The position numbers were made by a program, and so were the translations under genes. Source: Octopus vulgaris (Eukaryota). From it: a stretch of 64,000 bases of DNA. The stretch spans positions 65,782,001 through 65,846,000 of the forward strand of contig OX597819.1 in assembly GCA_951406725.2 (NCBI GenBank). The letters are read 5' to 3'. The notes beneath the pieces were generated by a model. The model was not told the DNA's origin. It searched no databases and worked only from the letters and a program-made list of their open reading frames with translations. Positions 5,529 through 62,790 of the stretch are shown in pieces; within the stretch, counting starts at the first letter, position 1, and every line of letters begins with the position of its first letter.

Positions 5529-5559
<31 letters not shown>

Positions 5560-5575
5560 TATCACTATTATTATT

Positions 5576-6121
5576 GAGTGAGAGAGCAGTGCATGCCATC
5601 AAAGTGACAATTGGGTAAAATATACGAAGCCCATCATGACTACCCGTCTGATAAGGGTACACTAGGCACATGCATCACAACCATATGTGCGCGACATAGT
5701 GATCTCATATCAAGATAAACAGCGCATGACCTTGCAGGTGGGGCCCAGTTAGAATTTTCTTCTGCTCGAGTAGCCCATCCCGCTCAAAGGTCCCTGAATA
5801 AGGATTGTTTAAGGATGTTGAACGAACCACTCATGTTTCCAAAGGTGAATTATCCAAACCTCCAAGAATTCCATTCAACACACGGCTATGATGCTCCCCC
5901 ACTACTTCTGCTCGTGATCAGAGATGCACATATCATCAGTCACTAAGGGACATGCTCAACTGGTTAAGGTCAAACAACTGACAAGCAAATCTGTGGTATT
6001 GAGCAGAATATTTGCTGTAGCCCATCTTTTATACCAAGACAAAACAATGTACATGATAACACTTCCAATCAGTTAAGATCAGAAGCCATGAGACCCACTG
6101 CCTGGTACTGCAACAGGGCAT
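5576..6121 (-). mobile_element. ~550-bp (AAT)n-associated non-coding interspersed repeat
   Basis: Reverse-complement homologue of 28351-28906 and 61831-62386; (ATT)n on both sides. Confidence 0.85.
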
Positions 6122-6167
6122 TTATTATTATTATTATTATTAATATTATTATTATTATTATCATTAC

Positions 6168-6230
<63 letters not shown>

Positions 6231-8601: not shown

Positions 8602-10880
8602 CCGACACTACTCTCGGATCACAACATGATAGAGCTGACCATGTACGGGCCAAAAGAGAGCACGGACATGCAGCCTACAAGAAACCCTCAAAATCTTTCC
8701 AGCTTGAACTACCATAAGGCAAACTGGAAACAAATTGAGAAAGAGATCCTCAAACAAAACTGGCCTAAATGTCTCTCCTCGCCAGACATCGACGTGAAAC
8801 TTCAACAATTCATGTCTGTAATGCAAGCCATATGCTACAAATGTGTCCCAGAGAGAAAGGCCACTGTACACAAGAACAAAATCCCCAGAGAGAGGAAAAT
8901 TTTAATGAGACGGCGTACGAAATTTTCAAATCGCCTAAACAAACAGATTGAAAGCAGTGAAAAGTCCCGCCTAAAAATAAAACTGTTGGAAATCGAAAAA
9001 TGTCTGCAACTCTCCCATGAAAAAGAAAGAGCAGACAAAGAAGCCTGGGCTATAGAAAACATAAAATCTAACCCCAGAGCTTTCTACAGGTATGCCAAAG
9101 AAACAGCTACAGTGCACTGTAGAATAGGGCCACTCCTCGAAAAGGATGGCACACTTACAGGAAAACCAATGAGGGTAAGTGAAATACTGAATGAGCAATT
9201 CAAGAGTGTTTTCACTCTACCCCTTGGGCATCTCCAAATCACCAATCCAACTGACTTTTTTACCACTGCAGATATAAAATCAGAGGCGGCGACGATAGAT
9301 TACATCGATATAAAGGAAGACGATGTAACCAAGGCTATAGATGAAATGAAAACAGACTCAGCTACTGGCCCCGATGGATTCCCAGCAATCCTCCTAAAAG
9401 CATGTAAGAGAGTCCTAGGCAAACTTCCAGGAAAACTGAAGGAAGGTAAAATATGCCCCATTCATAAAGGAGGTAGCAGAACGGAAGCCAAGAACTATAG
9501 ACCTATCTCTCTGACCTCACACATCAGCAAGGTCATGGAACGAATAGTCAGAAGGAAGCTGATCACCTTCCTTGAAGAGAATGACTTGCTGCCCGACACC
9601 CAACATGGTTTCCGACCAGGGAGAAGCTGTTTAACTCAGCTCCTACAACACTATGACTGGGTGCTGAAACGGCTGCTCAACCACTCAAATGTGGAAGTGA
9701 TATATCTCGACTTTGCAAAGGCCTTTGATAAAGTCGATCATGGAATGATATGTCACAAACTGCGTGATCTCAACATAGTTGGAAAACTGGGAGAATGGCT
9801 TCATGACTTTCTGAAGGATAGAAGTCAGGTGGTAGTAGCCAATGGGGCCACCTCCATTAACACACAAATAGTGAGCGGTGTTCCGCAGGGCACTGTTCTG
9901 GGACCACTACTGTTCATAATGGCCCTCTCAGACATGCCCTCAGCCACGCAGAGAGCCACGATCACAAGTTATGCAGATGATACAAAAGTTTCACAGGCAA
10001 TACAGAACCCTGAGGACACTAAACACCTGCAATGTGAGCTGGACGAAATATACAAGTGGGCTGAAAAGAATAGCATGCAGTTCAATGCTGGAAAGTTTCA
10101 AGCTTTATACTATCAGCATGCAAAACTGAATGCAATACCCAATGAATACACTGGACCCGGAGGGATTGCAATCCCAGAGGCACAATCAGTGCGTGACCTG
10201 GGTATTCACATGAGTGATGACGCGACCTTTCATGTACATGTTGCTAAACTGACAATGAAATGCAGACGGCTGGCTGGCTGGATTCTTAGAACCTTTAGAA
10301 CAAGAGAACAAGAAACCATGATGGTCCTCTGGAAGACACTTGTCCTAAGCCACTTTGACTATTGCTCTCAGCTATGGTCACCATCCAGTGTCAAGTTGAT
10401 CACAGAACTTGAGGCGATCCAACGAAGCTACACAAATAAGATAGCCTCTATGCAGAATGTAAGCTACTGGGAAAGACTCAAGAGATTAAAATTATATTCC
10501 CTGGAGCGTAGGCGGGAAAGATATGCCATAATATACATCTGGAAGATCCTGGAGGGAAGTGTCCTGAACTTTGGCATCGAGAGTTACGCAAATGCCAGAA
10601 CTGGGCGCCACTGCGTGGTCCTAGGACTCCAAACCTGCCATCAAGATGTAGGACAAGATTCTGTGATAGCCTGGGCTTCCGAGGCCCACAGCTCTTCAAT
10701 ATCCTCCCGAAGAACCTGAGAGACCTGCATGGGGTGGATACAGATGTCTTTAAAATGAAGCTGGATCTCTTCCTGTCAGGTGTCCCAGATGAACCAACTT
10801 CACGGCAGGAGGGGCAGATGAGGGCAGCTGCATCGAACTCTCTCATGCACCAAATAGCAGTTGCTAGAAAGCCTCCATGA
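8602..10880 (+). pseudogene. LINE ORF2 reverse transcriptase, truncated and frameshifted
   Basis: Motifs [73 protein letters not shown]. Apparent in-frame deletion at ~9415. Frameshift at ~10620, continuing as ...[14 protein letters not shown]...FKMKLDLFLSGVPDEP to a stop at ~10880. Confidence 0.9.
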
Positions 10881-10964: not shown

Positions 10965-10971
10965 ATATATA

Positions 10972-11014
<43 letters not shown>

Positions 11015-11061
11015 GTATATATATGTATATATATGTATATATATATGTATATATATATATA

Positions 11062-11106
<45 letters not shown>

Positions 11107-11117
11107 TTATATGTATA

Positions 11118-11158
<41 letters not shown>

Positions 11159-11207
11159 GTATATATATACATATGTATATATATATACATATGTATATAT
11201 ATATATA
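10965..11207. repeat. (TA)n microsatellite
   Basis: Direct repeats between the LINE tail and the Helitron array. Confidence 0.95.
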
Positions 11208-12757
11208 CTAGCAGTATCGCCCGGCGTTGCTCGGGTTTGTAAGGGAAATAACTATATAAGCATTTTTAGAGAGTTATAGCCAAAAAATAGCAAAAAAATG
11301 CATTAAAAATTGAAAAAAAAAATTAAGGTAAATTTTTTTTTAAATCGTTGACACATCGTAGATATTTTTAGAGAGTTACTTCCCTTATATAAAAGCGAAA
11401 AAATGCATTAAAATGGAAAAATATGATGGTAAATTTTTTTAAAATCGTAGACTCATCGTAGACGCACGCTAATACCCAGAAGGGCTCGATATGAATCACG
11501 ACTATAAGATACCCGCTTTTGGTTAAACTGCACCGCAAAATGTGGGAGTAGTTAGGAATGTAAATCGTAGGAGACAGACACACAACTTCACTCTTATATA
11601 AAGATGCTTTTTTTTTTCAGTCATAGAGTTAGATTTATGAAGGTCTTCAGTAGAAAATCCTTCGAATTCTGACTCGCTGCTTGATATAATGAAATTCGTA
11701 TCCATTTTTTGTCAGAATTACAAATTTTGAAAACACAATAGGAACAAATTTCGGAAAAAAATCTTCCATAATTCACGGAATTAAAATTACACTTCGATTT
11801 TTGTACAAAACTGTAGTTGAAGTGTTTACGAAGTATAATACGTGTTTTCACGAATGTACTAAAGAGATTTGCTCTGATATTCTCATTTAAATATGAATAG
11901 GTAAATTCGGGCGGCTTGGTAACTATATATAAGTGTCGTCTGTTTATACATAAACACTGTTTCATACTGCAATTATATATACATATATCTATATATAATA
12001 TTATATAATAAAATATATACAGAGTAAAATAAAAACCAATTTACCTTTTCTGTCCGTCCGTGTGTCTTTGCAAATGTGTTGGAATGATAAGTGAGTTGAG
12101 TTTTGGCGCCTTTTTACTAATAACAAACACACACGTGTTTGTATGTAGTTGTATGTAGTTGTATATGTATGTGTATGCGTGTGTGTGAGGAATGACACAC
12201 ACACACTCACGCACGCACACATGTACATCAATGCTTTCGGAGTGATATGTTAAAATATTGAGTTTTCTCGAATTTTGTCTTAATTGGTGGTAAAATTGAA
12301 AGAAATTTTTTATGGCATCACCCACTGAAGTACTCTGAAAAATCTTAGGTAAATTCTAATTGAAGAAATTGTGTGAGGATTAAATGGTTATGTATTTATT
12401 TGTTTCTGTTTGCTGTGTTTTTTTATTTTTTGAGTAGTGGTTTAAATACTTTCAGTTTAGTCTTCCTCAAATCACTCTGTCGCTATTTACTTTCATTTTA
12501 TTCGTTGCCCACTGTGTGTGTGCGTTTGCGTGTGGTGTAAACCAGACTAAGAAAAGCATTTGACACACACACCAGAATGTGAGTTTTCTGTAAATTTTGC
12601 TTAATTGGAGTTTAAATTTTAAAAACTGGACCTGGCATGACGCGATGCATTCTACTCTTAAAATTGCTAGGTAAATTGTAATTGAAGAAATCCTATATTG
12701 TAGATTTCTATAACTCCCAAAGGGAGGCAGGTAAAATCTGCCTTTTATAATAAGAGA
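11208..12757 (-). mobile_element. Non-autonomous Helitron, tandem unit 1 (1550 bp)
   Basis: Minus strand starts TCTCTTATTATAAAAGG and ends CCCGAGCAACGCCGGG hairpin + CGATACTG + CTAG; followed by T on the minus strand. Confidence 0.9.
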
Positions 12758-14301
12758 CTAGCAGTATCGCCCGGCGTTGCTCGGGTTGTAAGGGAAATAA
12801 ATATATAAGCATTTTTAGAGAGTTATAGCCAAAAAATAGCAAAAAAATGCATTAAAAATTGAAAAAAAATTAAGGTAAATTTTTTTTAAATCGTTGACAC
12901 ATCGTAGATATTTTTAGAGAGTTACTTCCCTTATATAAAAGCGAAAGAATGCATTAAAATGGAAAAATATGATGGTAAATTTTTTTAAAATCGTAGACTC
13001 ATCGTAGACGCACGCTAATACCCAGAAGGGCTCGATATGAATCACGACTATAAGATACCCGGTTTTGGTTAAACTGCACCGCCAAATGTGGGAGTAGTTA
13101 GGAATGTAAATCGTAGGAGACAGACACACAACTTCACTCTTATATAAAGATGCTTTTTTTTTTCAGTCATAGAGTTAGATTTATGAAGGTCTTCAGTAGA
13201 AAATCCTTCGAATTCTGACTCGCTGCTTGATATAATGAAATTCGTATCCATTTTTTGTCAGAATTACAAATTTTGAAAACACAATAGGAACAAATTTCGG
13301 AAAAAAATCTCCCATAATTCACGGAATTAAAATTACACTTCGATTTTTGTACAAAACTGTAGTTGAAGTGTTTACGAAGTATAATACGTGTTTTCACGAA
13401 TGTACTAAAGAGATTTGCTCTGATATTCTCATTTAAATATGAATAGGTAAATTCGGGCGGCTTGGTAACTATATATAAGTGTCGTCTGTTTATACACAAA
13501 CACTGTTTCATACTGCAATTATATATACATATATCTATATATAATATTATATAATAAAATATATACAGAGTAAAATAAAAACCAATTTACCTTTTCTGTC
13601 CATCCGTGTGTCTTTGCAAATGTGTTGGAATGATAAGTGAGTTGAGTTTTGGCGCCTTTTTTACTAATAACAAACACACACGTGTTTGTATGTAGTTGTA
13701 TGTAGTTGTATATGTATGTGTATGTGTGTGTGAGGAATGACACACACACACTCACGCACGCACACATGTACATCAATGCTTTCGGAGTGATATGTTAAAA
13801 TATTGAGTTTTCTCGAATTTTGTCTTAATTGGTGGTAAAATTGAAAGAAATTTTTATGGCATCACCCACTGAAGTACTCTGAAAAATCTTAGGTAAATTC
13901 TAATTGAAGAAATTGTGTGAGGATTAAATGGTTATGTATTTATTTGTTTCTGTTTGCTGTGTTTTTTTATTTTTTGAGTAGTGGTTTAAATACTTTCAGT
14001 TTAGTCTTCCTCAAATCACTCTGTCGCTATTTACTTTCATTTTATTCGTTGCCCACTGTGTGTGTGCGTTTGCGTGTGGTGTAAACCAGACTAAGAAAAG
14101 CATTTGACACACACACCAGAATGTGAGTTTTCTGTAAATTTTGCTTAATTGGAGTTAAAATTTTAAAAACTGGACCTGGCATGACGCGATGCATTCTACT
14201 CTTAAAATTGCTAGGTAAATTGTAATTGAAGAAATCCTATATTGTAGATTTGTATAACTCCCAAAGGGAGGCAGGTAAAATCTGCCTTTTATAATAAGAG
14301 A
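12758..14301 (-). mobile_element. Non-autonomous Helitron, tandem unit 2 (1544 bp)
   Basis: Near-identical to unit 1; exact junction AATAAGAGA|CTAGCAGTATCG. Confidence 0.9.
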
Positions 14302-15846
14302 CTAGCAGTATCGCCCGGCGTTGCTCGGGTTGTAAGGGAAATAAATATATAAGCATTTTTAGAGAGTTATAGCCAAAAAATAGCAAAAAAATGCATTAAA
14401 AATTGAAAAAAAATTAAGGTAAATTTTTTTAAAATCGTTGACACATCGTAGATATTTTTAGAGAGTTACTTCCCTTATATAAAAGCGAAAGAATGCATTA
14501 AAATGGAAAAATATGATGGTAAATTTTTTTAAAATCGTAGACTCATCGTAGACGCACGCTAATACCTAGAAGGGCTCGATATGAATCACGACTATAAGAT
14601 ACCCGGTTTTGGTTAAACTGCACCGCCAAATGTGGGAGTAGTTAGGAATGTAAATCGTAGGAGACAGACACACAACTTCACTCTTATATAAAGATGCTTT
14701 TTTTTTCAGTCATAGAGTTAGATTTATGAAGGTCTTCAGTAGAAAATCCTTCGAATTCTGACTCGCTGCTTGATATAATGAAATTCGTATCCATTTTTTG
14801 TCAGAATTACAAATTTTGAAAACACAATAGGAACAAATTTCGGAAAAAATCTCCCATAATTCACGGAATTAAAATTACACTTCGATTTTTGTACAAAACT
14901 GTAGTTGAAGTGTTTACGAAGTATAATACGTGTTTTCACGAATGTACTAAAGAGATTTGCTCTGATATTCTCATTTAAATATGAATAGGTAAATTCGGGC
15001 GGCTTGGTAACTATATATTAGTGTCGTCTGTTTATACATAAACACTGTTTCATACTGCAATTATATATACATATATCTATATATAATATTATATAATAAA
15101 ATATATACAGAGTAAAATAAAAACCAATTTACCTTTTCTGTCCATCCGTGTGTCTTTGCAAATGTGTTGGAATGATAAGTGAGTTGAGTTTTGGCGCCTT
15201 TTTTACTAATAACAAACACACACGTGTTTGTATGTAGTTGTATGTAGTTGTATATGTATGTGTATGCGTGTGTGTGAGGAATGACACACACACACTCACG
15301 CACGCACACATGTACATCAATGCTTTCGGAGTGATATGTTAAAATATTGAGTTTTCTCGAATTTTGTCTTAATTGGTGGTAAAATTGAAAGAAATTTTTT
15401 ATGGCATCACCCACTGAAGTACTCTGAAAAATCTTAGGTAAATTCTAATTGAAGAAATTGTGTGAGGATTAAATGGTTATGTATTTATTTGTTTCTGTTT
15501 GCTGTGTTTTTTTATTTTTTGAGTAGTGGTTTAAATACTTTCAGTTTAGTCTTCCTCAAATCACTCTGTCGCTATTTACTTTCATTTTATTCGTTGCCCA
15601 CTGTGTGTGTGCGTTTGCGTGTGGTGTAAACCAGACTAAGAAAAGCATTTGACACACACACCAGAATGTGAGTTTTCTGTAAATTTTGCTTAATTGGAGT
15701 TAAAATTTTAAAAACTGGACCTGGCATGACGCGATGCATTCTACTCTTAAAATTGCTAGGTAAATTGTAATTGAAGAAATCCTATATTGTAGATTTGTAT
15801 AACTCCCAAAGGGAGGCAGGTAAAATCTGCCTTTTATAATAAGAGA
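14302..15846 (-). mobile_element. Non-autonomous Helitron, tandem unit 3 (1545 bp)
   Basis: Near-identical; exact junctions on both sides. Confidence 0.9.
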
Positions 15847-17378
15847 CTAGCAGTATCGCCCGGCGTTGCTCGGGTTGTAAGGGAAATAAATATATAAGCA
15901 TTTTTAGAGAGTTATAGCCAAAAAATAGCAAAAAAATGCATTAAAAATTGAAAAAAAATTAAGGTAAATTTTTTTTAAATCGTTGACACATCGTAGATAT
16001 TTTTAGAGAGTTACTTCCCTTATATAAAAGCGAAAGAATGCATTAAAATGGAAAAATATGATGGTAAATTTTTTTAAAATCGTAGACTCATCGTAGACGC
16101 ACGCTAATACCTAGAAGGGCTCGATATGAATCACGACTATAAGATACCCGGTTTTGGTTAAACTGCACCGCCAAATGTGGGAGTAGTTAGGAATGTAAAT
16201 CGTAGGAGACAGACACACAACTTCACTCTTATATAAAGATGCTTTTTTTTTTCAGTCATAGAGTTAGATTTATGAAGGTCTTCAGTAGAAAATCCTTCGA
16301 ATTCTGACTCGCTGCTTGATATAATGAAATTCGTATCCATTTTTTGTCAGAATTACAAATTTTGAAAACACAATAGGAACAAATTTCGGAAAAAAATCTC
16401 CCATAATTCACGGAATTAAAATTACACTTCGATTTTTGTACAAAACTGTAGTTGAAGTGTTTACGAAGTATAATACGTGTTTTCACGAATGTACTAAAGA
16501 GATTTGCTCTGATATTCTCATTTAAATATGAATAGGTAAATTCGGGCGGCTTGGTAACTATATATTAGTGTCGTCTGTTTATACATAAACACTGTTTCAT
16601 ACTGCAATTATATATACATATATCTATATATAATATTATATAATAAAATATATACAGAGTAAAATAAAAACCAATTTACCTTTTCTGTCCGTCCGTGTGT
16701 CTTTGCAAATGTGTTGGAATGATAAGTGAGTTGAGTTTTGGCGCCTTTTTACTAATAACAAACACACACGTGTTTGTATGTAGTTGTATATGTATGTGTA
16801 TGCGTGTGTGTGAGGAATGACACACACACACACACTCACGCACGCACACATGTACATCAATGCTTTCGGAGTGATATGTTAAAATATTGAGTTTTCTCGA
16901 ATTTTGTCTTAATTGGTGGTAAAATTGAAAGAAATTTTTTATGGCATCACCCACTGAAGTACTCTTAGGTAAATTCTAATTGAAGAAATTGTGTTAGGAT
17001 TAAATGGTTATGTATTTATTTGTTTCTGTTTGCTGTGTTTTTTTTATTTTTTGAGTAGTGGTTGAAATACTTTCAGTTTAGTCTTGCTCAAATCACTCTG
17101 TCGCTATTTACTTTCATTTTATTCGTTGCCCACTGTGTGTGTGCGTTTGCGTGTGGTGTAAACCAGACTAAGAAAAGCATTTGACACACACACCAGAATG
17201 TGAGTTTTCTGTAAATTTTGCTTAATTGGAGTTAAAATTTTAAAAACTGGACCTGGCATGACGCGATGCATTGTACTCTTAAAAATGGTAGGTAAATTGT
17301 AATTGAAGAAATCCTATATTGTAGATTTGTATAACTCCCAAAGGGAGGCAGATAAAATCTGCCTTTTATAATAAGAGA
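15847..17378 (-). mobile_element. Non-autonomous Helitron, tandem unit 4 (1532 bp)
   Basis: Near-identical with private variants; 5' TC terminus preceded by A on the minus strand (A|T target, no TSD). Confidence 0.9.
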
Positions 17379-17660
17379 TATATATAGACGCTAAATCGTC
17401 AATCACCACATACAATATACATCGCTATGAATACACGTCCTCGATTTCAGCAGAACGTGTAATTATAGTGATGTATATTATTTGGTGATTGAAGATTTAA
17501 AGTCTATTTCTCGGCATATTCGTATAGAAATTTCTTCTTTTGCCCTTATTTATAATTGTTTAAACTTTACACCTTAATGGTATTTTAATATGCTGGCCAC
17601 TTGAAATTTTTGAAAAATGTTAATCCTATATTAGAAGTATATATATATATCTTTTTTTTT

Positions 17661-17942
17661 CCTTTTACTTGTTTCAGTCATTTGACTTTGGCCATGCTGG
17701 AGCACCGCCTTTAATCGAGCAAAACGACACCAGGACTTATTCTTTGCAAGCCTATTACTTATTCTATCGGTCTATTTTGCCGAACCGCTCAGTTAAAGGG
17801 ACCTAAGCACACCAGCATTATCTATCGAGCGATGTTGGGGGGGGGAGCAAACACAGACACACAAACATTCACACACACACACATACAAATATATATATAT
17901 ATACATATATACGACGGGCTTCTTTCAGTTTCCGTCTAGTAA
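17661..17942 (-). mobile_element. tRNA-derived SINE family B, 3' portion
   Basis: Reverse complement contains GACGGAAACTGAAAGAAGCCCGTCG, an internal (TG)n, and the tail GGCGGTGCTCCAGCATGGCC...TGACTGAAACAAGTAAAAG. Confidence 0.85.
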
Positions 17943-20560: not shown

Positions 20561-21623
20561 CATGTGTGTGTGTGTGTAAACTTAGTGTGTCTTTCTCTCT
20601 CCTATAAATTGTTAGTTAATGTAACTTATCATTCTATGAGTCCCTGCTCTCTCATTCTCTCTCTCTCTCTCGATTCGCTTTCTCTCCTTCCATTCTCCCT
20701 CTCTGTTTTCTATTCGTTTACATGTCTTTTTGTCTCTCACTCCTTTTCAGCTTCTGTCACATTTTTACAAAACTTGTTTAGTTACCTTCACTCTGCAGTT
20801 CCCCCCATTTTACACATGCACAAACACACACAAATATTTGAATCAATTACATATCGCTGCATCACATTTTTTACCCTTCTCTCTCTCACGTCCATCCCTC
20901 CATCTATTTATCTCTATATGTCTCACCTACTATGCCATGTGATCACTATCTATCTATCACTTTATTTAAAAATATTTCTTTGTAAACATTTGTTGGTCTT
21001 TGCAATCTGACAATCTCATACCTCTGTCTTTATTTCTCTGTCGCTTACTCTTCCTCTCTCAGATACTCTTTCTCTCACCATTCTCTCCTCTATTGTTATT
21101 AATCCTCGCCACCCCATCAATCTTACAGAGTTCATCTTTATCTCCTATTCTCAATTTCTCTCGTACTTTTATCATCCTCATGTAAATCTAGTTTATCATT
21201 ATTTTCCCCGCAAATTTAAGCCCACACATATATACATATTTGCATTCATACATACATGCAAACATATATACACATATTAGTTTTGACGTTGTTGTATATT
21301 TCAAATGCACTTACAAATGTCCTGCGACATACACATGCATTCATCTCTATATGTGTGAACGTGTTTGTACATACATATTCGCGTGTATATACACACCACA
21401 CAAGCTCACAAAAAACGTGCACACACAAACATGCACACGAATATACGTCTACAATATTATCAAGGCAGATTTACATTTTCCTCAAAAATACGTCACACAT
21501 GCACGTATATATATATATATATTTATATTTCAAAAATTGAGGGTAAAATTAATTAATTATTAATCAATTTCACCAAGTATTCAGTATGCAAAGGGACCAT
21601 TTAAGGCGAATTCAAATTATTAC

Positions 21624-21918
21624 ATTATATAAAAGGGCTTAGTAAAATAAATTACTTTGCCACATACTGAACTCATTAGAAATAGCAGCTAAAAAAATTT
21701 TTTTTTAAACTATTTCTAATACTTAAAGAAAATCTCTCTCATATATAGTGTTTGCTCACTTCAACTCACCCCCATACTTTCGTGAGTTGAAGTGAGCAAA
21801 CACTATATATGAGAGAGATTTTCTTTAAGTATTAGAAATAGTTTAAAAAAAATTTTTTTAGCTGCTATTTCTAATGAGTTCAGTATGTGGCAAAGTAATT
21901 TATTTTACTAAGCCCTTT

Positions 21919-21926
<8 letters not shown>
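21624..21926. repeat. Near-perfect long inverted repeat (146/145-bp arms, 12-bp loop)
   Basis: 21624-21769 is the reverse complement of 21782-21926 except for one indel in a T/A run. Confidence 0.95.
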
Positions 21927-21959
<33 letters not shown>

Positions 21960-28226: not shown

Positions 28227-28304
<78 letters not shown>

Positions 28305-28350
28305 AAGAAGAAGAAGAAATATATAAATATAATAAGTATGAATATAATAA

Positions 28351-28906
28351 ATGCCCTGATGCAGTATCAGGCAGTGGCTCTCATGGCTTCTGATCTTAAC
28401 TGATTGGAAGTGTTATCATGTACATTGATTTGTCTTGGTATAAAAGATGTGCTACAGCAAATATTCTGCTTAATACCACAGATTTGCTTGTTAGTTGTTT
28501 GACCGTAACCAGTTGAGCATGTCCCTTAGTGGCTTATGAAATTGGCATCTCTGATCACGAGCAGAAGTAGTGGGGAAGTATCATAGCCATGTGTTGCAAG
28601 GGATTCTTTGGGGTTTGAATAATTCACCTCTGAAAACATGGGTGTTTCGTTCAACATCCTTAAACAACCCTTATTCAGGGACCTTTTGAGCAGGATGGGT
28701 TACTCGAGCAGAAGAAAATTCTAACTGGGCCCCAACTGCAAGGTCATGTGCTGTTTATCTTGATATGAGATCACCATGTCGTGCACACATGGTTGTGATG
28801 CATGAGCCTAGAGTACCCTTATCAGACGGGTAGTAATGATGGATATACTGGGCTTCGTATATTTAACCCCAGTGTCAGTTTGATGGCATGCACTGCTCTC
28901 TCACTC
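28351..28906 (+). mobile_element. ~555-bp (AAT)n-associated non-coding interspersed repeat
   Basis: ATGCCCTGATGCAGTATCAGG...GCACTGCTCTCTCACTC followed by (AAT)n; homologous to three other copies. Confidence 0.85.
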
Positions 28907-28951
<45 letters not shown>

Positions 28952-37256: not shown

Positions 37257-37833
37257 GAGCTCATTTACTGCTGAGTTGCTTTACTGCTGAGCTCCTTTAC
37301 ACCTGAGCTCTTTTACTGCTGAGCTCCTTTACTGTTGAGCTCTTTTGCAGCTGAACTCATTTACAGCTGAGCTCCTTTACAGCTCAGCGCTTTTACTGCT
37401 GAGCTCTTTTACTGCTGAGCTCCTTTACTGCTGAAATTCTTTACTGCTGAGCTCCTTTACTGTTGAACTCCTTTACAGCTGAGCTCTTTTACTGCTGGGC
37501 TCCTGTATAGCTTCGCTCCTTTACTGCTGAGCTCCTTTACTGCTGAGCTCCTTTACTGCTGAGCTCCTTTACAGCTGTGCTACTTTACAGCTGAACTCCT
37601 TTACAGCTGAGCTCATTTACTGTTGAGCTCATTTACTGCTGAGCTCATTTACTGCTGAACTCCTTTAGTGCTGAGCTTCTTTATAGCTGAGGTCCTTTAC
37701 TGCTGAACTCCTTTACTGCTGAGCTCCTTTACTGCTGAGCTCTTTTACAACTGAGCTCCTTTACTGCTGAGGTCCTTTACAGCTGAGCTCCTTTACTGCT
37801 GAGCTCCTTTACTGATGAGCTCCTTTACAGCTG
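37257..37833. repeat. 16-bp minisatellite (~36 units), consensus ACTGCTGAGCTCCTTT
   Basis: Contiguous diverged 16-mers without unique spacers. Confidence 0.92.
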
Positions 37834-38451: not shown

Positions 38452-38522
38452 ATATTAATAATAATAACTTATTTAATCTTTCTATAATATGTAATTTTTC
38501 TAAATGGTATAATTTAATTTTT

Positions 38523-39346
38523 GGATCTTTTCCTTTTGAACGGCAGACAATTTCTAGTTAACTAAATACTTTAAAACTTCGTATATTGGTAGAATGTGTC
38601 AAAATAAAACATGTTTTTCTCTTGGCTTTCTTGAGAAAATTGTAATTTGTTTGTTTAACGTAGTTTAATTTTTCGAATTTTAACCAATCCTATGCTCTCT
38701 TTTGAGCTAAAATCATTTGCTGCGTCTAAAACTGAGACAACATCCTGTCACTAACCCTAAACCTCCCCTAACCCTAACCCTAAATTATTCTTTCTTAATT
38801 GTTAAATTAATTTAATTGTTACGAGTGTAAAAAAAAACGAAAGCAATGGAAAATAATTTAAACAATTAACAAACAAAATAATTCTATAATTTTATACACA
38901 CGCTTTCCGTAACACACGCTTTCCGTAACACACGCTTTCCGTTTACGTACGGAAAGCGTGTGTATAAAATTATAGAATTATTTTGTTAATTGTTTAAATT
39001 ATTTTCCATTGCTTTCGTTTTTTTTACACGCGTAACAATTAAATTAATTTAACAATTAAGAAAAAAATTTAGGGTTAGGGTTAGGGGGAGGTTTAGGGTT
39101 AGTGACAGGATGTTGTCTCAGTTTTAGACACAGCAAATGATTTTGGTTCAATGGAGGTAATCGATTGGTTAAAATTGCCGAAATGCTCGGATTTTCAGAC
39201 GAACTATCGTACAAACTATAGAATTTTCTCAATAAAACCAAAAGAAAATGATGTTTTATAAACACATTCTACCAGTATACGAAGTTTAAAACTTTTTAAT
39301 TACCTAGAAATTATGTTACAAACTGCCGTTCAAAAGGAAGAGATCC
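38523..39346. mobile_element. 824-bp foldback non-autonomous DNA transposon (Merlin- or MULE-like)
   Basis: Termini GGATCTTTTCCTTTTGAACGGCAG / CTGCCGTTCAAAAGGAAGAGATCC; exact 8-bp TSD TAATTTTT; arms complementary to the centre; internal CCCTAA/TTAGGG units. Confidence 0.9.
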
Positions 39347-39970
39347 TAATTTTTCATTATTGAATTGATAAAAGGTGTTTTTTTCTAATATATATATATG
39401 TTATGATGATTTGATATAGTTGCAGACTTAATGGTTATTTATTCACCAACTGTCCAAATCACCAACATGTCATCCAACGATATCCCTTCTTTATAACTAG
39501 TACGACTCTCTGTATACTACATGGCTGCGCATACGATACTCTTCTGGTATCTCCAGCACTCATGCGTATTTATACATTTCGCAACCGTTCACTTTTCCTT
39601 TCACGGCGGTGTTCGACTTCCACCACAACAATATATATTTGTGTGTGTGTGTGGGGGGGGCTCTTATATATATTGATAATAAGGAGAATAAAGAATGTGA
39701 ACATTCAAACTTTGTTTATTTCCAGTTAGTTTATTCATAATAATAGACCGACACGTGTTTCGATAGCACCAACTGCATATAATGTTGTATGTACATATGC
39801 TGCAACTGCACACGCTCAAGTGCCAAGAATAAACTATAACACCGGGTGGGAGTTAAACGAAGTTTATCAAGAAAGGAACCATTATGTTACATCACATTAG
39901 AAGAAACCAGCCTTGGCATTTTACTTAGAGAAATTCGATATCTGCTTGGATATCATATCCCTCCACTTAT

Positions 39971-61662: not shown

Positions 61663-61738
<76 letters not shown>

Positions 61739-61830
61739 TACTACTACTATCACTACTAATGATGATAATAGCAATAAGAATTAGAAGAAGAAGATGAAGA
61801 ATGACGATGATGATGATAGTGATGATAACT

Positions 61831-62386
61831 CCCCTGATGCAGTATCAGGCAGAGGCTCTCATGGCTTCTGATCTTAACTGATTGGAAGTGTTATCATATA
61901 CATTGTTTTGTCTTCGTATAAAGGATGGGCTACAGCAAATATTCTGCTTAACACCACAGATTTGCTTGTCAGTTGTTTGACCTTAACCAGTTGACCATGT
62001 CCCTTAGTGTTTGACGATTTGTACATCTCTGACCACGAGCAGAAGTAGTGGGGGAGCATCATAGCCGTGTGTTGACAGGAATTCTTAGCGGTTTGGATAA
62101 TTCACCTTTGGAAATATCGGTGTTTCGTTCAACATCCTTAAACAATCCTTATTCAGGGACCTTTAGAACGGGATGAACTACTCGACCGGAAGAAAATTCT
62201 AACTGGGCCCCACCTGCAAGGTCATGCGCTGTTTATCTTGATATGAGATCACCATGTCACGCACATTTCGTTGTGATGCATGTGCCTGGTGTACCCTTAT
62301 CAGACGGGTAGTAATGATGGGTATACTAGGCTTCGTATATTTTACCCCAGTGTCACTTTGATGGCATGCACTTCTCTTTCTCACTC
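61831..62386 (+). mobile_element. ~555-bp (AAT)n-associated non-coding interspersed repeat
   Basis: Full-length homologue of 28351-28906 with (AAT)n tail. Confidence 0.85.
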
Positions 62387-62396
62387 AATAATAATG

Positions 62397-62434
<38 letters not shown>

Positions 62435-62503
62435 GAGGAGAATAATAATAATAATAATGATAAGAAGAAGAAGAAGAATGACGACGAGGATGATGATGAT
62501 GAT

Positions 62504-62790
62504 CCTGATACAGTGCAAGGCAGTGACTCTCACGGCTTCTGATCTTAACTGATTGGAAGTGTTATCATGTGCATTGTTTTGTCTTGATATAAAAGACGGG
62601 CTATAGCAAATATTCTGCTCAATACCACAGATTTGCTTGTCAGATGTTTGACCTTAACCAGTTGAGCATATCCCTTAGTGGCTGACGATATGTGCATCTC
62701 TAATCACGAGAAGAAATAGTGGGGGAAGCATCATAGCCATGTGCTGGGAGGGATTCTTTGGAGTTTGGATAATTTGCCTTTGAAGACATT
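62504..62790 (+). mobile_element. Second, 3'-truncated copy of the (AAT)n-associated repeat
   Basis: Same 5' start; homology stops at ~62790. Confidence 0.8.

Follow-up and report, generated by a model that had tools for sequence, protein, structure and literature searches.

Exact head-to-tail junctions in a Helitron tetramer of Octopus vulgaris and their possible origin by insertion at resident 5′ ends

In this study, a tandem array of four head-to-tail Helitrons in a 64,000-nucleotide stretch of Octopus vulgaris DNA (contig OX597819.1, hereafter the window) was analyzed. Each 1.55-kb unit is joined to the next at an exact CTAG/TC boundary, and the question is how such junctions arose. An initial annotation of the window took the founding multimer to be a product of rolling-circle read-through or circle integration that was turning into a 1.5-kb satellite. 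Exact CTAG/TC joins recur throughout the genome, and the subfamilies they bring together match random pairing. The feature is real and was correctly identified; its mechanism was probably misread.

The array, its Helitron family and the RepHel partner

The lengths and termini annotated for the four complete units were borne out, as were the three base-exact junctions without spacer and the position of the array between A and T (Table 1). On the minus strand, the array begins A/TCTCTTATT at 17378 and closes with the hairpin CCCGAGCAACGCCGGG and then CGATACTGCTAG, ending CTAG/T at 11208. The last 45 nucleotides (nt) of the unit had a predicted folding energy of −4.5 kcal/mol. No target site duplication (TSD) was found in the flanks of the array or of 36 dispersed copies. 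The units differ pairwise by 4–16 substitutions (0.26–1.05%) and 4–7 indel events and are near-identical, not identical; a self-match of 4.6 kb at 98.7% within the window was far above chance. A second TC-type 5′ end, which the initial annotation did not mention, lies within every unit, 393–397 bp from the 3′ end. The coding capacity of the unit was a 139-amino-acid frame without a Pfam match. The tetramer gave no sign of a host function and is an ordinary small array.

The genome searched comprised 2.8 Gb in 227 contigs. Exact counting gave 2,889 matches to the 5′ 26-mer and 24,510 to the 3′ 22-mer; a further 421 starts were shorter by two bases. With 40 of 3,278 candidates scored, 36 full-length dispersed copies were aligned; they carried the same termini as the array and lay 0.3–1.8% from their own consensus. 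The Helitron family is large and non-autonomous, and the window unit represents one of its subfamilies. Members of 1.2–2.3 kb formed 17 clusters among 163 elements and had about 270 bp of 5′ sequence in common, while their 3′ parts were short modules with a TC start of their own. In the fetched loci (overlapping loci counted twice), A preceded 143 of 147 outer starts and T followed 239 of 240 3′ ends. Some copies, seen in the flanks of loci L044, L090, L162 and L165, faced the 5′ end of another family member head to head, with a short TA tract between the two.

An element encoding RepHel with the same termini had been proposed as a search target, and one with the same 5′ end was found. In the search, 150 of 1,172 candidates were scored, and the frames of L179–L208 were then compared with the fetched loci by tblastn; matching RepHel coordinates to the ends listed on contig C1 gave no pairing. 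Locus L168 starts with the family 5′ end, and its encoded protein was 99% identical to the L187 frame. Two elements of about 6.8 and 7.0 kb (L209 and L210) were retrieved whole, with the same 5′ end, the same hairpin and a CTAG end; the 8-nt linker at their 3′ end differs from that of the window unit. Unit positions 1–516 matched RepHel elements at 96% (L168), 86% (L210) and 81% (L209). L209 has a 1351-amino-acid frame with Helitron_like_N (PF14214) and PIF1 (PF05970) domains, and the helicase part is interrupted in both L209 and L210. By these sequence matches, an autonomous-type RepHel partner with the same 5′ end exists, and it is the putative mobilizer of the units. At L210:70–130, a RepHel-type 3′ end is joined CTAG/TC to the 7-kb RepHel element, which indicates that coding elements form the same junction. 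The N-terminus of the RepHel protein in L209 (3539–7594, minus strand) contains repeated 49-amino-acid blocks matching the STPRs of PF21107; L209 and L210 have different numbers of these blocks.

Judged by its termini, dispersed copies and RepHel partner, the family belongs to Helitron1. Helentron/Helitron2 elements of the DINE-1 type, described in the cited sections as having a TT target, subterminal inverted repeats and T-run ends (PMC4067079), were ruled out by the A/T target and the TC and CTAG ends. A Pfam scan of the 1350-amino-acid RepHel frame found no endonuclease family; subterminal inverted repeats were not searched separately.

Exact junctions across the genome and the pairing of partners

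A genome-wide count of the junction 21-mer, suggested as a check on the rolling-circle reading, gave 62 occurrences at 59 loci. Outside the window, 59 matches lay at 58 scattered loci, all of which were fetched. Joins to the two-base-shorter start numbered 190, and joins to short relatives 587; the short-type arrays were studied at 30 of the 190 loci (3 kb each) plus coordinates, and the short-relative joins as match lists. The total is at least 839 exact junctions, about 3% of 3′ ends. The 252 exact joins to the roughly 3,500 starts of the family compare with about 0.1 expected for insertion at any A/T site and 1.7 for insertion at (TA)n sites only, figures obtained by arithmetic from site densities in the window extrapolated to the genome.

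Both partners were delimited at 52 of the 59 junctions outside the window. They belonged to the same subfamily in 9 cases, two of which are one duplicated locus, and to different subfamilies in 43, among which L092, L093 and L096 were kept as unlike with a probably misdelimited partner. Like pairs were not in excess over shuffled pairs (58/400, P = 0.54), and the 9 like pairs differed by 0.6–3.8%, overlapping the null. The partners in hetero pairs were mostly entire elements assignable to known subfamilies, and exact joins are not specific to concatemers, as hetero pairs carry them too. Several loci (L064, L068, L072, L075, L104 and L121–L123) held trimers or tetramers of different subfamilies, some with both junction types. 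The family 5′ module was present in the upstream partner at 53 of 58 loci, compared with 12 of 100 unselected 3′ ends, the first ones listed.

If a single donor were read through, the joined units would be alike; no excess of like pairs was found, and read-through is not the main source of junctions. For the array in the window, one donor might still have been copied as a rolling-circle concatemer by bypass of the terminator, inserted as identical units and later altered by mutation and gene conversion. Terminator bypass has been invoked for tandem arrays of bat, silkworm and plants in the passages cited (PMC4067079, PMC12628747, PMC11934779), and the four units, close to one another and of one subfamily, all carry 1196C, a variant private to them. 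A single donor would also give a correlation of start types within arrays: a short outer start was found in 14 of 35 short-type arrays, compared with a baseline of 13%. Against this stand the random pairing across the genome and the lineage markers described below, and we regard such an origin as unlikely.

The two-base-shorter starts made up 13% of outer ends and 75% of exact junctions. They mostly followed long (TA)n tracts, with a run of 8 or more in 42 of 52 cases (overlapping loci counted twice). For the 190 short-type joins, an origin by insertion at position +2 of long starts was considered and rejected unless the joins were later altered; only 5 TC+long starts occur genome-wide.

Target preference and the history of the four units

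Since a Helitron starts with TC and takes A/T as its target, the boundary at which it begins is itself an A/T site. Insertion at a resident A/TC boundary gives CTAG/TC, and an exact junction therefore needs no circle. The ordinary 3′ flanks of the family resemble the element's own 5′ end. In deduplicated, non-microsatellite flanks of solo copies, G or C occupied 5 of 140 bases at +7 to +11 after the 3′ end and 76 of 280 on the other side; TAWAA was present in 13 of 28 3′ flanks compared with 1 of 56. A preference for AT-rich sequence 3′ of the insertion has been reported for Helraiser, according to the section cited (PMC4778049).

Spacer lengths were tallied by hand in the first 100 of 150 listed near-junctions. 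The spacer was 0 nt in 39, 12 nt in 16 and 14 nt in 17 (ten of the last from one array), and lengths of 2, 4, 6, 8 and 10 nt occurred 3, 1, 1, 3 and 2 times. A matrix built from solo flanks scored lowest at spacers of 4–6 nt, matching the gap between the 0-nt joins and the 12-nt peak. Because flank composition alone does not explain the zero-spacer excess, specific recognition of the 5′ end is needed. Nicking by RepHel at the donor 5′ end is established for Helraiser in the cited passages (PMC4778049, PMC5876387), and we infer that RepHel may use resident 5′ ends as targets.

Alternatively, two different excised strands or circles could have been joined CTAG/TC by RepHel off the chromosome and inserted as a heterodimer, which unequal exchange then raised to four units. 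Such joining likewise predicts random pairing of co-active subfamilies, same-family partners and partners of equal age, and in the experiments cited purified Helraiser transposase could both form and cleave precise end junctions (PMC5876387). It leaves unexplained the class of 12–14-nt (TA)n spacers, the dip at 4–8 nt and the likeness of 3′ flanks to the 5′ end. Short and long starts, moreover, contributed 190 and 62 joins with 421 and about 2,800 outer starts, and most short starts follow a long (TA)n tract, a pattern that points toward an effect of chromosomal context. Joining before integration is accordingly given a small probability, similar to that of the concatemer.

The substitutions between the outer units u4 and u1 bear on the origin of the array itself. 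They number 16, a distance like that of unlinked copies. At 8 of the 16 sites, both states occurred in at least two of the 36 dispersed copies, against a background of 63 of 4,632 possible site-base variants (P about 1e-11 under random new mutation). The u4 markers 91C, 293C, 315C, 1240C and 1501T were found in L035, L053, L050 and other dispersed copies, and the u1 markers 50G, 106G and 991A in different ones; the 9-bp and 10-bp deletions of u4 were absent from all 36. On these markers, u4 and u1 likely come from two source lineages. The view that all units descend from one donor did not hold at these sites, for which a concatemer would require several ectopic conversions, although 1196C argues the opposite.

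The inner units are mosaics. Written from 5′ to 3′ with X for the state of u4 and Y for that of u1, the 16 sites read YXYYYXYYYXXXXXXX in u3 and YXYYYXYYYYXXXYXX in u2. A single switch fits 14 of 16 sites in u3 and 13 of 16 in u2 (shuffle P 0.011 and 0.049). In both units the 5′ part resembles the downstream unit and the 3′ part the upstream unit, a polarity that unequal exchange of an X/Y dimer gives. Derived changes were common only to neighboring units. This shows that units were duplicated or exchanged once the founder had been inserted, regardless of what that founder was.

Recombination of a Helitron circle by homology into a resident copy was also weighed. The junction would then be the circle joint, and the outer halves would be one original element. 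Homology would account for same-family partners, the outer halves do differ from the inner ones, and circles with exact junctions are established in the passage cited (PMC4778049). Dispersed copies, however, tie the 5′ markers of u4 to the inner 3′ markers and not to 991A of u1; L035, L053 and L050 connect its 5′ markers with its own 3′ markers. Partners in hetero pairs are mostly whole elements, and recombination through the common 3′ module should pair short elements equally often, which was not observed. This origin is very improbable.

The results favored, with reasonable but limited confidence, a first junction formed when RepHel inserted u4 at the A/TC 5′ boundary of u1, with the two inner units added by unequal crossing-over. 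RepHel, which nicks A/TC at donor 5′ ends, would also take resident 5′ ends as targets, and insertion there would leave a spacer-free join without circle or TSD. From the mosaic, the X/Y dimer would have become X/C/Y by a first switch within unit positions 825–991, and then X/C′/C/Y by a second within 700–825, with a few short conversion patches in addition.

Several observations weigh against insertion at a resident 5′ end followed by exchange. Besides the private 1196C, sites 50 and 145 (and 1279 in u2) misfit a single switch, with 50 and 145 needing conversion patches, and the family is reticulate, which weakens lineage assignment. In the flank matrix, pure (TA)n scored higher than the bare 5′ end, and the 12/100 baseline for the 5′ module may reflect the activity of older short elements. 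Among clustered junction elements, the window subfamily supplied 3 upstream and 9 downstream partners, a share so small that only about one of the 59 loci should hold a like-with-like pair. Three measures of age asymmetry between junction partners were null: in two of them, the upstream partner lay nearer its relatives in 23 and in 26 of 43 pairs (P 0.36 and P 0.20), and in the third, on rare variants, P was 0.89 (43 and 49 pairs across the age tests). Without age asymmetry, an order with the resident first is presumptive. Four public contig sets compared with 17100–17900 covered flank and element, and none listed bridged the boundary; no spanning read, empty allele or dimer allele was seen in them.

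That no spanning read was seen would also fit an assembly artefact, with fewer copies in the animal. The substitutions and 9–10-bp deletions form an ordered, neighbor-shared pattern among units, which a simple assembly duplication would hardly produce, and hundreds of junctions occur on many contigs. An artefact is most improbable.

For the family as a whole, the chances are about even that RepHel targets the 5′ termini of resident relatives and that the exact CTAG/TC junctions, at least 839 in number, are mostly TSD-free double insertions that make chimeras and seed arrays. As for the proposed transition to a satellite, no direction was evident: the array has four units in 6.2 kb, and the other junction matches lie at 58 scattered loci. 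On a second contig (G000:C2:206160149–206179826), a match list gave ten successive junctions about 2,181 bp apart with an identical 14-nt (TA) spacer each, and hence at least 11 units. As no spacer is expected in a circle joint, this array would indicate post-insertion expansion in the family, and it is a better satellite seed than the window tetramer.

Table 1. Features of the Helitron array and its surroundings (window coordinates)
Feature	Position	Strand	Remarks
Tetramer of the 1.55-kb non-autonomous Helitron1	11208..17378	−	Flanked by A and T, no TSD found
Unit u4, 5′-most copy (X)	15847..17378	−	1532 bp
Unit u3, chimera	14302..15846	−	1545 bp; 5′ part u1-like, 3′ part u4-like
Unit u2, chimera	12758..14301	−	1544 bp; 5′ part u1-like, 3′ part u4-like
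Unit u1, 3′-most copy (Y)	11208..12757	−	1550 bp
Exact CTAG/TC junctions	u2/u1 12749..12769; others 14293–14313, 15838–15858	−	21-mer AATAAGAGACTAGCAGTATCG; zero spacer
3′ subterminal hairpin	11220..11235; also 12770–12785, 14314–14329, 15859–15874	−	CCCGAGCAACGCCGGG; 16 nt, 12 nt before the end
5′ subterminal hairpin	17346..17364	−	Unit positions 15–33; common to the RepHel-coding element
Inner short Helitron-like module	11208..11604	−	Own start A/TCTTTATATAAGAG, 3′ end of the unit; further starts 13150, 14694, 16239
Unit positions 1–516 (given for u2)	13786..14301	−	Homology with non-coding 5′ sequence of the RepHel element
(TA)-rich tract after the 3′ end	10965..11207	.	243 bp; likely target
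Long interspersed nuclear element (LINE) reverse-transcriptase frame	8620..10716	+	Tail adjoins the TA tract; context, outside the array

Other repeats were noted in the window. A 309-bp near-perfect palindrome (21621–21929, 95%) and an 878-bp inverted repeat (38496–39373, 80%) are probably miniature inverted-repeat transposable elements or foldback elements. At least three copies of an interspersed repeat of about 700 bp with an (AAT)n end, 86–88% identical, lie at 5529–6229, 28238–28951 and 61736–62789, and 36 copies of a 16-bp minisatellite at 37257–37833.

Comparison with known systems

Head-to-tail Helitron junctions are a standard genomic argument for rolling-circle amplification, and this argument would be weaker if most of them come from insertion at resident 5′ ends. 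Chromosomal dimers would then confound junction polymerase chain reaction assays for circles. Helitron target choice would gain a testable rule, that targets resemble the 5′ end, with relevance for vectors of the Helraiser type and for the seeding of satellites by transposons.

The octopus family resembles Helitron1 elements of the Helibat/Helraiser type, as described in the cited sections (PMC4778049), in its 5′ TC, 3′ hairpin with CTAG, A/T insertion apparently without TSD, RepHel partner and AT-rich preference strongest 3′ of the insertion. It differs in being a new family whose body is modular, with an inner second 5′ end. A repeat annotation of octopus (PMC13282606) lists recently active Helitrons, with nothing on arrays in the passages searched.

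Tandem Helitrons are known and, in the passages cited, are usually ascribed to terminator bypass (PMC4067079, PMC12628747, PMC11934779, PMC12001565, PMC5876387). The Xenopus arrays have 2–7 units (PMC12001565), and those of Xiong et al. 2016 are known here as cited in PMC12628747, PMC11934779 and PMC5148889. Like the bat, silkworm, plant-centromere and Xenopus arrays, the octopus arrays consist of head-to-tail copies with precise ends. Unlike read-through arrays as there described, they have complete units, are short and dispersed, and mostly join different subfamilies paired at random.

Another likeness is to the double-insertion model of McGurk and Barbash 2018, in which, by the cited account, dimers form through site preference and expand by unequal exchange (PMC5932611). 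The model depends on a target duplication that is retained where the two copies meet, whereas no TSD was found at the octopus array. Insertion here would instead be into the 5′ boundary of the element itself, giving a junction that would mimic a circle joint.

Adjacent distantly related Helitrons and self-insertion have been noted in bat and maize (PMC4067079) and in Fusarium and Metarhizium (PMC5148889). In the passages cited, insertion at the 5′ end is likewise offered instead of rolling-circle copying, and composites with several 5′ ends occur. No published count of like and unlike partners at exact Helitron junctions was found in a search mostly outside subscription journals and without supplements. 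The earlier cases, as cited, are statements or single examples, whereas in octopus counts of pairing, spacer length and flank bias were set beside controls. Both Helitron arrays and double insertion had been described before; what is new is the test of pairing across the genome.

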